Source: a virus
Virus record (IMG/VR): IMGVR_UViG_3300035698_028775
Length of the DNA: 25,251 nt
Direction: 5' to 3' (one strand)
Position 1 is the first letter of the stretch. Each line of letters opens with the position of its first letter. The notes below the pieces were generated by a model. That model was given only the letters and a program-made list of their open reading frames with translations. It ran no database searches and was not told the origin of the DNA. Positions 11,330-13,887 of this stretch are shown here, piece by piece. A program made the translations under genes and the position numbers.

Positions 11330-13678
11330 TTACTTTGCCTGTCCCTTTCCACTTTCATGTTTTATCTGATGCATTATCCTCGCATCAGGACCAATCATTT
11401 TTTCAGCTATTCTTTTTACATTCAAACCTTCAACAGCCGACAATTCTCCAAAGTTTTCCGAAAGTGCCGCAATCTGTATGTCATCGCCCAATTTATTAAT
11501 CGCCGTTATTACACCATCAGGTATCGCCTTAAGCTTTTCTATTACCGCACCCGATTCAGCCTTGATTAACTCGATTTTGACATCTTGTTCCAACTTTTTA
11601 CCACCAGCGAAAACCTTATATTTCGACATTTCACGCTCCGCAAAACCATCCTGCGCCTTCTTTTTAACAATCAATTCCTTGTCCGAAACCTTTTCCAGTT
11701 CCACATTAATCGCAAGAGCCTTCTTTGCGTCCTGAATTCCCTCTGCCTTGGTCAATTCTATTTTCTTCAGTTCAGTCACATGTCCATCATTGATTCTATT
11801 CATTTCCAGATTACCTTCGTGCTTTCGAGTCTTTTCCCTTTCATCCGACTTTTGTCTGGAAATCTCCTCTTCTTTTTGCACCTTCAATAGTTCAGCCTCA
11901 TCCTTTCTGGTCTCCAAACTGTATTTCAATTCTTCCCTCGATGTATCCTTCAAAAGCGTAGCGATAGCCGAGTCTTGGATATTGAAAGACAAAACCTCTA
12001 CATCGTATATTTTCATATTGTTCTCGTCAAATACCTTTCCAGTCCTATCGCCCTTGTCCGGTTTCTCACCAAGAACAATGTCACGAATTATATCTGTTCC
12101 CTTCTGATAAAATTCACTTATACCATACGATTTTATAACCGCTTTCAGAACGCTTCGCATATGGTCACACATCAGTTTCACATAATTGGAACAGCTAAAC
12201 CATTTCTGCTCCTTATGCTCCTTTTTGCCACCTTCCAAAAATTCCACACGATACGACAGTTTTATTCTCACAGGTATCATATCGCTTGTTTCAACATCTA
12301 TGATATCACTGACCTTATTGTTCTTTATCTGAAGATATACCGTATCCAAAAGACAGTCAGTCGTTTTAGGTTTTCCCATACTCAAAGACATCTTTTCCAA
12401 AACCTCGTGGTACTCAAGAAGCTTCGTTTTTGGACCCACAATAACCTCCCTGTCGCCAACCCTGCTTACCACCTGTACAGCGAACCCAGGATATACATCA
12501 ATCACCACAGCCCCCTTATATTTGTTGTCAAGCGTAACCGTTCTCGGCTTGGTGTAATTATGTTTACGCTTAGTCGTATCCCCACCAAAACCAGCCTCCG
12601 ATGGTGGAGGTAAATCCACACCCCTGGATTTAAATCCAGCAGACATACCATAAACCTCATTCAAAGCATTCTCCTGAAGCATACCTTTCCTTTGTATGCC
12701 ATCAAAAGATTGCTGTTCCTCCAAATCTCTGTATTTCTGATTGACCTCTTCAGCATCATCACTTTCTGGAAACCACAGATTTACATCCTTCTTAGACAGT
12801 ACACGACAAATGATTACCTCTTTTCTCGGGTCGGGTAAAAACGTTTGTGGACCCTTAGCCAACCTAATGTGCCCCTTAATCCTATCCATCACATAAAGAG
12901 CCTCACCAGCAGGAATATTGGTCGCAAAATGAATCTCCTGATTCTCCCTGTACTTAATCAAAGAATGTTCGGCTCTCGGAAAATAAAATTTTGAATTATT
13001 TCCCGTAATGAACAATTCTTCACCCTCAAGGACATCATCATCTCCCTTATAAGCCTTCGTCACCTTTACATGCACTCCAGAAATTTCGTTCAATTCTATT
13101 GCATGAAAACGCCGTGAAGCATTATTATTCTTTAAAAATTCCTGGTCTGGCTCAGGGAAAACAACTGCCGGTCCTCTCGGATATGACTTCATTCCATTTT
13201 CACTCAAAAGTACCGCATATTCCAAAGCTTCAAGCGAAACAGCATCCCTAACATAATCACCATTTTCAGAAACAACTTTTACACCAGTCGGCGGTATGTA
13301 AAATGCTATATCGGAACCCTTTATTATTATTCTTTGCCCATTCACCAAACTAATTTCCTCGTCTGGCTTTTTACTAACCTTCTTTTCCTCATCACCCTCA
13401 ATAACTCCCTCTGCTACAGCCTCTTTCCAGAATTTAGTTGCCGATTCCGCATCATATACCTCACAAACCAAAAACTGATTTGTCCTCAGCTTATGCCCAC
13501 GCACAACTGCTGCCATCTGCCCAGGCCAAAGAGGGAAACTCTCAGGACCAGGAATAATCACTTTGCGCCCAACATCTAATTCAGGATGAAGCTCTTTTGA
13601 ACTTTCTTTCGGATGCTCATCCACATGCTTTTTTTCACTTTCAGGTATCACCACAGGATTCAAAAGAATCACTACCAC
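11330..13678 (-). CDS. MVP: Major Vault Protein homolog, main part (vault repeats 2..n, shoulder/SPFH-like domain, cap-helix)
   Basis: VIIPGPESFPLWPGQ ~ human IRLAQDPFPLYPGE; GAVVIDVYPGFAVQVVSRVGDREVIVGPKTKLL...MSLSMGKPK...DIIDVETSDMIPVRIKLSYRVEF ~ human [34 protein letters not shown]...LSLSAGRPK...[23 protein letters not shown]; shoulder KWFSCSNYVKLMCDHMRSVLKAVIKSY...DIIRDIVLG ~ [27 protein letters not shown]...RIIRTAVFG; followed by a long E/K-rich helical region like the cap-helix. The first codon in the track is GTG. Confidence 0.85.
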   Translation of the reverse strand: MVVILLNPVVIPESEKKHVDEHPKESSKELHPELDVGRKVIIPGPESFPLWPGQMAAVVRGHKLRTNQFLVCEVYDAESATKFWKEAVAEGVIEGDEEKKVSKKPDEEISLVNGQRIIIKGSDIAFYIPPTGVKVVSENGDYVRDAVSLEALEYAVLLSENGMKSYPRGPAVVFPEPDQEFLKNNNASRRFHAIELNEISGVHVKVTKAYKGDDDVLEGEELFITGNNSKFYFPRAEHSLIKYRENQEIHFATNIPAGEALYVMDRIKGHIRLAKGPQTFLPDPRKEVIICRVLSKKDVNLWFPESDDAEEVNQKYRDLEEQQSFDGIQRKGMLQENALNEVYGMSAGFKSRGVDLPPPSEAGFGGDTTKRKHNYTKPRTVTLDNKYKGAVVIDVYPGFAVQVVSRVGDREVIVGPKTKLLEYHEVLEKMSLSMGKPKTTDCLLDTVYLQIKNNKVSDIIDVETSDMIPVRIKLSYRVEFLEGGKKEHKEQKWFSCSNYVKLMCDHMRSVLKAVIKSYGISEFYQKGTDIIRDIVLGEKPDKGDRTGKVFDENNMKIYDVEVLSFNIQDSAIATLLKDTSREELKYSLETRKDEAELLKVQKEEEISRQKSDEREKTRKHEGNLEMNRINDGHVTELKKIELTKAEGIQDAKKALAINVELEKVSDKELIVKKKAQDGFAEREMSKYKVFAGGKKLEQDVKIELIKAESGAVIEKLKAIPDGVITAINKLGDDIQIAALSENFGELSAVEGLNVKRIAEKMIGPDARIMHQIKHESGKGQAK

Positions 13679-13887
13679 CCTTCAGGTGCTGTCGTAAATC
13701 GCTGCTTTGTCTGTGCATCATCTTTTCGAAATGTTTTTGAAGCCTTATCGAAAAGAATCAATTCTTCCTGCTGAGATAGCGTAACCGTCTGCGGACCAAC
13801 ACCAGTTCGTACTGTACCCTTGGTCGTATCACGAATATACGCATACTCGTTTGGAGCCAATATTATATCTCTACTATCTTTTTCCAT
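13672..13887 (-). CDS. MVP: Major Vault Protein homolog, N-terminal repeat 1 (separate ORF abutting/overlapping the main MVP ORF; frameshift or split gene)
   Basis: MEKDSRDIILAPNEYAYIRDTTKGTVRTGVGPQTVTLSQQEELILFD ~ human [47 protein letters not shown]; start refined to ATG 13887 (GGAAGG SD); ends TAG at 13672, 7 nt inside the downstream ORF in another frame. Confidence 0.7.
   Translation of the reverse strand: MEKDSRDIILAPNEYAYIRDTTKGTVRTGVGPQTVTLSQQEELILFDKASKTFRKDDAQTKQRFTTAPEGW

Follow-up and report, generated by a model that had tools for sequence, protein, structure and literature searches.

The MVP gene carried by the viral DNA considered here (IMG/VR record IMGVR_UViG_3300035698_028775; the whole stretch of 25,251 nucleotides that was analysed is called the window) raises the question of whether one vault-type polypeptide is made from it, or two, or none of any use. 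A preliminary description had MVP split into two abutting ORFs in different frames. The reading frames of the window confirm this, with the refinement that the whole locus lies on the minus strand. Read 5' to 3' on that strand, positions 13690 to 13661 are AGCACCTGAA GGGTGGTAGT GATTCTTTTG, with the motif GAAGGGTGGTAGTG at 13683-13670. The first frame ends ...ACA GCA CCT GAA GGG TGG TAG (T A P E G W stop), and its TAG, at 13674-13672, is followed immediately by a TGA. As had been reported, the remainder of the gene continues from GTG 13678 in the -1 frame, this GTG (13678-13676) standing one base 5' of a codon boundary of the first frame. The TGA said to lie just upstream in the -1 frame is also present, at 13684-13682.

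The upstream reading frame, ORF-A (13672-13887, minus strand), runs from ATG 13887 to the TAG and encodes 71 amino acids, MEKDSRDIILAPNEY...RFTTAPEGW, before the stop. It can be aligned with the N-terminal ends of bacterial MVPs and holds vault repeat R1, the linker between R1 and R2, and the residue that begins the R2 strand. ATG 13887 is most likely its start codon, to judge from the predicted ribosome-binding site: a Shine-Dalgarno sequence, GGAAGGT (13894-13900, minus strand), stands 5-6 nt before it and gives an anti-SD duplex of -9.2 kcal/mol, stronger than that at 74% of the window's presumed starts. TTG 13959, taken from the ORF list, and ATG 13950, preferred by gene callers, are less likely; the duplex at ATG 13950 reaches only -0.9.

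The downstream frame, ORF-B (11330-13678, minus strand), encodes 782 amino acids from GTG 13678, or 780 from GTG 13672, and is free of further stops or frame breaks. From its sequence, ORF-B is the rest of a bacterial-type MVP after R1, comprising the repeats from R2 on, then shoulder, cap helix and C-terminal helices. Residues 453-569 (11972-12322, minus strand) match the MVP_shoulder domain PF11978 with an E-value of 6.6e-29 (100.8 bits against a cut-off of 25), and Vault_3 (PF17795, cut-off 28.8 bits) scores 37.2 bits on the protein as it reads when the frame is repaired and 28.6 bits on ORF-B alone. More than 5000 homologs were found; the best 120, with lengths of 812-879 amino acids, align over 96-99% of the repaired protein. 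For an AF2 model of ORF-B, each of the top 12 fold matches in the PDB is an MVP chain (E about 1e-18). This model is of low confidence overall (pLDDT 64) and serves only for the layout of secondary structure: the shoulder has two blocks, 461-480 and 501-540, with pLDDT above 90, and DSSP assigns residues 581-716 (11531-11938, minus strand) to a single helix, the long cap helix. Thus, MVP domains that in this family all lie on one polypeptide of about 800-900 amino acids are here distributed over 71 and 780 or 782 amino acids in different frames. A chance pairing of unrelated ORFs was rejected: ORF-A and ORF-B match consecutive parts of one protein, P0121 of an intact phage relative, with a joint E-value of 9e-92.

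MVPs in phages have been described earlier (bioRxiv 10.1101/2023.11.10.566534), and copies also occur in the huge phages LR756500/LR756501 and in 80 IMG/VR contigs. Once repaired, the present protein has the architecture of the bacterial and phage MVPs, namely N-terminal beta repeats, the PF11978 shoulder and a long cap helix in about 850 amino acids. Its identity to bacterial and huge-phage MVPs is 39-43%, and to the one phage relative 60-69%; it is an outlier, about 41% identical to a homolog set whose members are about 60% identical among themselves. Unlike the homologs that were checked, each of which is one ORF, it is cut into 71 and 780 amino acids at the R1/R2 boundary. The fold is also that of eukaryotic MVP (rat, human and rabbit vaults, PDB 4V60, 9BW5 and 9Z4W; murine R1-R7, 3GF5), and the shoulder region shows sequence similarity to the eukaryotic proteins (E=3e-11). 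Nevertheless, identity in the fold alignments is only 13-18%, and the gene is prokaryotic or viral.

The preliminary description had repeat 1 ending at the TAG. The AF2 model of P0121, which is 60% identical and matches murine MVP R1-R7 (3GF5) with an E-value of 4e-11 and a probability of 1.0, bears this out: its R1 strands are 7-13, 19-23, 34-40, 45-48 and 58-60, and the break falls after the last of them, at residue one or two of the first R2 strand. By eye, we take the break to correspond to rat ...VPP|RHY58CIVANP, the start of R2; Tanaka and colleagues reportedly, in 2009, set R1 at residues 1-55. In the eukaryotic vault R1 forms the waist contact as part of a single polypeptide, whereas here it would be a separate peptide.

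Comparison with the nearest relative, P0121 and its locus L003, shows what separates the two frames. ORF-A is 68.8% identical to P0121 residues 1-64, and ORF-B 54.2% identical to residues 71-329. At the junction the relative reads CCC GAA GGG TGG TAT GTG GAA CTT TTC AAT CCA, and the window CCT GAA GGG TGG TA- GTG ATT CTT TTG AAT CCT. Exactly one T of the Tyr codon TAT is absent; it belongs between 13673 and 13672, and a single inserted base restores APEGWYVILLNP, which fits the consensus APEGWY[ILV]xLKNP. The stop of ORF-A (13672-13674) is thus made of the TA of the ancestral Tyr codon and the G of the next codon, and this ancestral Val codon, GTG, now overlaps the stop (UAGUG). The lost Tyr is kept in all homologs compared (79 viral loci, huge phage LR756500 and 40 inspected bacterial MVPs). 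A single frame runs across the junction in L003, LR756500, the 40 inspected bacterial proteins and 79 of the 80 IMG/VR loci, the 80th being cut by a contig end and left out of the count. The possibility, raised earlier, that orthologs might carry two ORFs, which would have spoken for a true split gene, finds no match among them, since all compared orthologs are single ORFs. Thus, the two ORFs are one MVP-family gene broken by an authentic frameshift, the outcome of an ordinary mutation. An alternative genetic code or stop readthrough was also considered and rejected: all three stop codons end ordinary ORFs of the window, and the first frame meets the TAG, the TGA and two more TGAs within 10 codons.

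An indel had indeed been among the readings proposed earlier, as a sequencing error or as early pseudogenisation, and it had been suggested that a single-base indel restoring one continuous ORF in orthologs would mean an assembly error. The indel is there, but the conclusion drawn from it does not follow in this case. Five contigs from other assemblies (Ga0222637_1033900, Ga0075122_10088598, ERZ27315763 k141_344220, ERZ27315536 k141_550750 and SRR5581654_185868) are 99.9-100% identical to the window, one of them differing by a SNP elsewhere (14616), and all have the GAAGGGTGGTAGTGATTC junction. They come from two JGI samples, two ENA assemblies and one SRA run, processed by at least three pipelines (JGI, ENA/MEGAHIT k141 and Logan), and represent at least two read sets in addition to the window. 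A chance assembly error is unlikely, since five near-identical contigs from at least two read sets share the junction. It is true that apparent split genes in metagenome assemblies arise most often from single-base indels, and breaks of this kind are seen in many of the MVP fragments held by the databases. The evidence here consists of assembled contigs, several of which are probably re-assemblies of the same read sets (L006, L007 and L008 share contig ends, and L001 and L004 do so in part). Against this, the site lies outside any homopolymer (TGGTAGTG), where consensus deletions are rare in short-read data, and an intact allele was found in none of the searches made. The deleted junction is the only form found in this phage population, that is, in the window and the five contigs. 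That the true genome reads TGG TAT GTG and has an intact single MVP ORF is therefore improbable in the extreme.

Other searches for close copies were also negative. No near-identical DNA was found among GenBank phages, and no close relatives in IMG/VR by peptide patterns. Exact look-ups gave no record for ORF-B (782 or 780 aa), for ORF-A (71 aa) or for the neighbouring genes at 9379-10569 and 10802-11200, nor did they find a second copy of the 3' four-fifths of ORF-B. The word-index protein search missed an identical 92-aa form of ORF-A, so the absence of short matches there means little.

A -1 ribosomal frameshift fusing ORF-A and ORF-B into one MVP polypeptide was the first reading to be proposed for this locus, and some features are in its favour. 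The frames abut, with an overlap window of only 3-4 codons, and a ribosome that slipped back by one base at UGG or UAG would make a protein exactly as long as the ancestral one. Some bacterial frameshift sites (prfB, dnaX) show features of this kind, an SD-like element and a stop codon in the A site. One special case of this reading would have a near-cognate tRNA-Tyr read UA(G) as a doublet, restoring the Tyr. The sole permissive window for a shift is GAA GGG UGG UAG, between the -1-frame TGA (13684-13682) and the TAG (13674-13672), and it holds no X XXY YYZ heptamer. Re-pairing would be poor (2 of 3 positions for GGG to AGG, 1 of 3 for UGG to GUG), the RNA downstream is no more stably folded than its shuffled versions (z = -1.01, -0.65 and -0.09), and no Rfam family matches. 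The SD-like element overlaps with the codons of the P site, in contrast to that of dnaX, which is placed about 10 nt upstream, and the two-frame arrangement occurs in no ortholog, being a derived state that arose by the loss of one nucleotide. Programmed -1 frameshift sites are found in dnaX (A AAA AAG), in IS elements and in the tail-assembly-chaperone genes of phages (G/GT). The MVP junction resembles them in its abutting frames, the second at -1, and in the SD-like element nearby. It differs from them in having no slippery heptamer, stimulatory structure or conservation, and in being a derived deletion. Recoding of this kind, with or without the tRNA-Tyr variant, is thus very unlikely. The junction peptide of a fused product would read APEGW[Y/V]VILLNPVVIPESEK. 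Two further mechanisms were rejected: transcriptional slippage, the longest base run being GGG, and ribosomal bypass (hopping), for which no UGG landing codon stays in the MVP frame, the next UGG (13653-13651) being followed by an in-frame UGA. Taken together, it is highly probable that the deletion is real, neither an artefact nor a site of programmed frameshifting.

How, then, might the broken gene be expressed? An intrinsic terminator (11299-11328, minus strand; AAGGGAGC-TTAT-GCTCCCTT, then TATTTTTTTT) directly follows the stop of ORF-B, and no promoter-like site was found between ORF-A and ORF-B, so both ORFs are expected on one mRNA. On this predicted mRNA a stop and a start lie within a few nucleotides of each other, as UAGUG (13674-13670) and as GUGGUAG (13678-13672). 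The candidate restart codons (13670-13678, minus strand) are GTG 13678-13676, which lies 4 nt before the end of the ORF-A stop codon, and GTG 13672-13670, which lies 6 nt further downstream and overlaps the stop as TAGTG; gene callers begin ORF-B at the latter in other assemblies. TTG 13663-13661 is a third start-like codon in frame. An SD-like sequence, GGGTGGT (13674-13680, minus strand), is predicted to pair with the 3' tail of 16S RNA at -9.3 kcal/mol. Of the window's own starts, 74% have a weaker duplex, and among internal start-like codons this pairing ranks in the top 7%. Since it is encoded by the conserved Gly-Trp codons, this element pre-dates the deletion, and GAAGGGTGGTAT is also found in the intact relative.

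Our best guess, with a probability of roughly 0.45, is that two polypeptides are both made and used, through termination-reinitiation. The mRNA would be translated as two cistrons: ribosomes would make the 71-aa R1 peptide from ATG 13887 and terminate at the UAG, and a fraction of them would restart at GUG 13672 (or GUG 13678), aided by the SD-like GGGUGGU, to make a protein of about 780 amino acids extending from R2 to the cap. MVP would then exist in two pieces that are not fused. Such events occur at overlaps like UGAUG or AUGA in bacterial and phage operons, which the present locus resembles in its one-base overlap UAGUG, its single predicted mRNA and its upstream SD-like element. It departs from them in that the overlap is accidental and inside one gene, that the distance from SD to start is shorter than usual, and that coupling is only predicted. 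Stop/start overlaps of 4 nt and GTG starts are frequent in the genome, and the usual ribosome-binding motif of the window is GGTGAT. Reinitiation with the help of an SD had been proposed before; it stands as plausible and preferred, with the stop/start overlap and the strong SD-like element on its side and the very short distance between this element and the GTG against it. The SD-like duplex ends 0-1 nt before GTG 13672, covers GTG 13678 and lies 9 nt before TTG 13663, the usual spacing in the genome being 4-7 nt. TTG 13663 is better spaced but would cost the first R2 strand. The lost Tyr, universal in the homologs compared, also counts against two working pieces, since a conserved position is changed even if both pieces are made.

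Nearly as likely as the two polypeptides, and an alternative that we hold to be a serious one, is that the same real deletion inactivated the gene. MVP would then be a young pseudogene, ORF-A a useless 71-aa peptide and ORF-B poorly translated or not at all, with too little time having passed for more lesions or for loss of the gene. Early pseudogenisation, the other half of the indel proposal, is thus a live rival. The frame is broken at that universally kept Tyr, the orthologs are all single ORFs, and the spacing from SD to start is poor at both GTGs. The population is near-clonal (assemblies differ by 0-1 SNP per 1-2 kb), so that the deletion may have happened very recently. In a sister phage, MVP is a truncated 340-aa N-terminal fragment followed by an unrelated gene, and MVP genes split or broken at other positions are frequent in the databases. 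Together, the sister fragment and the many broken genes suggest that MVP may be dispensable in these phages. The short database proteins that match ORF-A are mostly contig-end fragments or carry scattered frame breaks; that set is strongly biased by its selection toward breaks near residue 71 and supports no conclusion about a hotspot.

Other observations weigh against inactivation. Only 52 of the 2494 possible one-nucleotide deletions (2.1%) give a stop within one codon together with a nearby start that has an SD core. We count it in favour of reinitiation, and against a pseudogene, that the deletion is among these roughly 2% and falls at a domain boundary as well. There is no second lesion in the 780 codons of ORF-B and no excess of changes at conserved sites, and at least two read sets and the window show the deleted allele and no other; phage genomes, moreover, tend to shed dead DNA quickly. 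Among 120 homologs, 222 columns are at least 95% conserved, and at 175 of these the repaired protein agrees with the consensus. Of its 23 N-terminal departures from the consensus, 18 fall where the intact relative also departs, which marks them as traits of the lineage. On the other hand, the lack of further lesions may reflect recency only, since the available copies are nearly identical. The dN/dS comparison with the relative, in which dS is saturated, is silent on the period since the deletion.

Under either reading, the two polypeptides of reinitiation or the young pseudogene, no new mechanism is revealed. For annotation, both ORFs should be labelled as one MVP-family gene with an authentic frameshift, neither as two genes nor as a programmed frameshift. 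If the gene is a fresh pseudogene, it and the truncated copy of the sister phage together suggest an accessory role for MVP, as a gene that this phage group can do without. It is possible, if rather unlikely, that the split is tolerated and functional, either because free R1 and the R2-to-cap MVP assemble together or because ORF-B alone forms a half-vault-like cage. If so, this would be the first natural two-piece vault protein, and R1, which forms the waist, would act in trans or be dispensable in prokaryotic or viral vault-like particles. The locus is in this respect a small natural experiment: if both halves can be expressed, a break at the R1/R2 boundary would show which parts of MVP are needed.

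The major vault protein (MVP) gene is interrupted on the minus strand of the window, where the sequence reads, 5' to 3', ...ACA GCA CCT GAA GGG TGG TAG TGA TTC... ORF-A, the 71-residue reading frame for vault repeat R1, ends with ...T-A-P-E-G-W at a TAG (13674-13672, minus strand). ORF-B, which encodes the remainder of MVP, runs for 782 codons on the same strand, from GTG 13678-13676 to 11330, in the -1 frame (one base back from ORF-A); a TGA (13684-13682, minus strand) lies upstream in that frame, and a second in-frame GTG (13672-13670, minus strand) overlaps the ORF-A stop as TAGTG. 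The preliminary description had MVP split into two abutting ORFs at 13660-13690. Every detail of this proved right, including the TAG end, GTG 13678, the -1 frame and the upstream TGA, provided that one reads the minus strand, since the strand had been left unstated. A variant genetic code was ruled out as an explanation, because TAG, TGA and TAA are all ordinary stops in the window and the ORF-A frame meets four stops within 10 codons.

The junction consensus in 40 bacterial homologs is APEGWY[ILV]xLKNP. The closest relative, the MVP-like protein P0121 of the sister phage (locus L003), is 60% identical to the repaired protein (ORF-A and ORF-B joined by one added base) over its first 202 residues and 69% identical over ORF-A. 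The L003 junction reads CCC GAA GGG TGG TAT GTG GAA CTT TTC AAT CCA and, aligned to it, the window reads CCT GAA GGG TGG TA- GTG ATT CTT TTG AAT CCT. Compared with L003, one T of the TAT tyrosine codon is gone, as the indel reading in the preliminary description had anticipated; putting it back gives APEGWYVILLNP. A single frame crosses the junction in 79 of 80 IMG/VR loci, the 80th being cut by a contig end, and in LR756500; Tyr is kept in all the junction motifs listed for these, while Trp is variable. Since the compared homologs have one frame and the Tyr, the two-ORF state is derived and specific to the window's lineage, not a family trait. We put at about 0.9 the probability that this is a real deletion, carried by every copy found and involving no programmed recoding.

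The single ORF of the orthologs, which had been expected to indicate an assembly error, supports the indel but not the error, for five other contigs repeat the deletion. A record look-up with the exact 92-residue gene-caller version of ORF-A retrieved Ga0222637_1033900 (JGI 3300023435; L001/L005), Ga0075122_10088598 (JGI 3300005915; L008), k141_344220 (ENA ERZ27315763; L004), k141_550750 (ENA ERZ27315536; L006) and SRR5581654_185868 (Logan SRR5581654; L007). Over 1.0-2.1 kb their identity to the window is 99.9-100%, and each of the five contains GAAGGGTGGTAGTGATTC; a single SNP, at 14616, sets k141_344220 apart from the window. Coinciding contig ends make it probable that some are re-assemblies of one set of reads, and we estimate at least two independent read sets in addition to the window's own source. 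The deletion site is no homopolymer, and the intact allele was not found in any search. It is thus extremely unlikely that the genome is in fact intact and the break an artefact of sequencing or assembly.

A -1 ribosomal frameshift joining ORF-A to ORF-B, also proposed at the outset, is very improbable. The stretch permissive for such a shift, after the -1-frame TGA and before the TAG, is GAA GGG UGG UAG. It contains no X XXY YYZ heptamer, and after a slip the tRNAs would re-pair poorly (GGG to AGG at 2 of 3 positions, UGG to GUG at 1 of 3). Downstream RNA folding is no better than that of shuffled sequence (z = -1.0, -0.65 and -0.09), and no Rfam family matches at the junction. Transcriptional slippage was ruled out, there being no supporting base run, as was a ribosomal hop, which is unworkable because a UGA comes right after the next UGG (13653-13651). 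Frames may be crossed spontaneously at a low level, with nothing pointing to programming; in one form of this, UA-G would be read as a doublet by a near-cognate tRNA-Tyr, which would restore the Tyr.

The production of two polypeptides through termination-reinitiation has, in our estimate, not far short of an even chance. Ribosomes would terminate ORF-A at the TAG and then reinitiate, making ORF-B as a second polypeptide. ORF-A has a good start at ATG 13887 (minus strand; SD GGAAGGT, -9.2 kcal/mol), which the N-termini of homologs fit; gene callers elsewhere begin it at ATG 13950 (92 aa), overlapping the upstream gene and practically without an SD (-0.9 kcal/mol). At the junction, the GGGUGGU of the conserved Gly-Trp codons forms a duplex of -9.3 kcal/mol with the 3' tail of 16S rRNA, which beats 74% of the starts in the window and ranks in the top 7% among internal codons that resemble starts. 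This SD-like element and the GTG predate the deletion, because intact L003 has both. The weak point of an ORF-B restart is the spacing: the duplex stops 0-1 nt short of GTG 13672 and covers GTG 13678; TTG 13663 lies 9 nt away, but a start there would remove the first R2 strand. Genes of this genome typically have the ribosome-binding motif (G)GGTGAT 4-7 nt upstream of the start (e.g. starts 14449, 15239, 9074, 6350 and 3021); the motif is the distal part of an extended SD and differs from GGAGG; 4-nt stop/start overlaps and GTG starts are frequent. No promoter-like site was found between the two ORFs. A strong intrinsic terminator (11328-11309 plus a T run, minus strand; 8-bp stem with five GC pairs, 4-nt loop, T8 tail) begins two bases past the ORF-B stop. 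Terminator-like sites are enriched in 11000-14600 (6 observed, 1.6 expected). In a simulation of all 2494 single-base deletions that the repaired gene could undergo, only 52 (2.1%) gave an immediate stop (within one codon) with a nearby start backed by an SD core, a mild indication that the phage can tolerate the lesion that has survived.

That the gene is a young pseudogene is a substantial possibility, if a tentative one. ORF-B extends over 780 codons with no further stop or frame break, and the lack of a second lesion speaks against decay; the copies of the deleted allele barely differ from one another, however, so the mutation may simply be recent. Relative to the sister phage, dS is very high, if not saturated. 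Of the 222 columns in which at least 95% of 120 bacterial homologs agree, the repaired protein has the consensus residue in 175, and its departures are mostly conservative. Of the 23 departures in its N-terminal 325 residues, 18 are lineage traits, since the intact relative departs there too, 15 times with the same residue.

The AF2 model of P0121 (pLDDT 89) matches murine MVP R1-R7 (3GF5, E=4e-11). Its R1 strands are 7-13, 19-23, 34-40, 45-48 and 58-60, and R2 begins with strand W64-F69. Because the break falls between W64 and Y65, R1 and the linker lie wholly within ORF-A, and ORF-B begins 1-2 residues into the first R2 strand. Matching by eye, we take the break to lie between ...VPP and RHY58CIVANP of rat MVP, whose R1 reportedly comprises residues 1-55 (Tanaka et al. 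2009).

Other MVP genes are also truncated or broken. That of the sister phage (L003, 740-1762, JGI Ga0222637_1000060) encodes just 340 residues, N-terminal repeats and then a short unrelated tail, and is directly followed by a metallophosphatase gene; no shoulder or cap-helix remnant was found in the 11.7 kb of L003 examined, a stretch with nothing detectable in common with the window beyond the MVP fragment. On the long contigs L009 (4001-6506) and L010 (4001-6513), a bacterial MVP gene is annotated as a pair of ORFs, split at other positions (354+484 aa, 307+530 aa); these may be errors or pseudogenes. Out-of-frame tails occur in many of the short N-terminal fragments. In L092 (153-1554, Logan SRR24907822_6568), from an unrelated lineage, an internal deletion has its 5' end right after the same Trp codon: R1 (...APEGW) is joined about 14 nt on to a part matching residues 415-786, in another frame and with its own ATG. 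The contig was found in two samples (L093, ENA ERZ28597558 scaffold_50382), and a 99%-identical sister contig reads the normal TGG TAT ATC..., with a frame break five codons on, in a C5 run. No hotspot can be deduced, because the fragment list is skewed to breaks near the ORF-A end, and the shared Trp codon may be a coincidence.

The window (37% G+C) resembles the accessory part of a large phage genome. Its genes lie nearly all on one strand and mostly have no known relatives; the few family matches are phage-type (HNH endonuclease, QueE-like radical SAM, polynucleotide kinase-like, a transposase fragment). The latter, a 125-residue ORF at the window edge (24866-25243, minus strand), is similar to phage transposase families in their C-terminal portion alone (phrog_506 positions 301-368 of 403, E=2e-23) and looks like a fragment or an ATG-defined ORF covering just the family's end. 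Three ORFs in different frames at 7389-8629 (8629-8360, 8418-8056 and 8201-7389, minus strand), none with a family match, overlap by 59 and 146 nt, which could be another frame break or merely wrong start choices. MVP is flanked by enzymes of nucleotide/NAD type: upstream, a nucleoside 2-deoxyribosyltransferase-like protein (13916-14449, minus strand; PF15891, E=2e-30) and, two genes downstream, a further phage-type match, a cytidylyltransferase/NMN-adenylyltransferase-like protein fused to a phosphohydrolase (9379-10569, minus strand; phrog_19425, E=6e-30). NAD-consuming enzymes are constituents of eukaryotic vaults, and ADP-ribose is a ligand of the MVP shoulder (bioRxiv 10.64898/2026.05.01.722283); the phage MVP could possibly be tied to NAD or nucleotide metabolism.

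In ORF-B, the shoulder domain of MVP is recognised (PF11978, E=6.6e-29), and a vault repeat is matched as well. Its AF2 model, of low confidence (pLDDT 64), has beta repeats and a single long helix (581-716) besides a shoulder that is predicted well, and MVP chains take the first 12 places among the model's PDB fold matches (E about 1e-18). With the two ORFs joined by one added base as query, more than 5000 proteins were found, from many bacterial phyla and several of them annotated as major vault protein; the best 120 are 812-879 residues long, with 39-43% identity and 96-99% query coverage. By tblastn, MVP copies are also present in 80 IMG/VR contigs and in the huge phages LR756500, LR756501 and LR756503, and MVPs of phages have already been described (bioRxiv 10.1101/2023.11.10.566534). 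Rather than a new mechanism, the window gene is a new, damaged member of the known MVP family.
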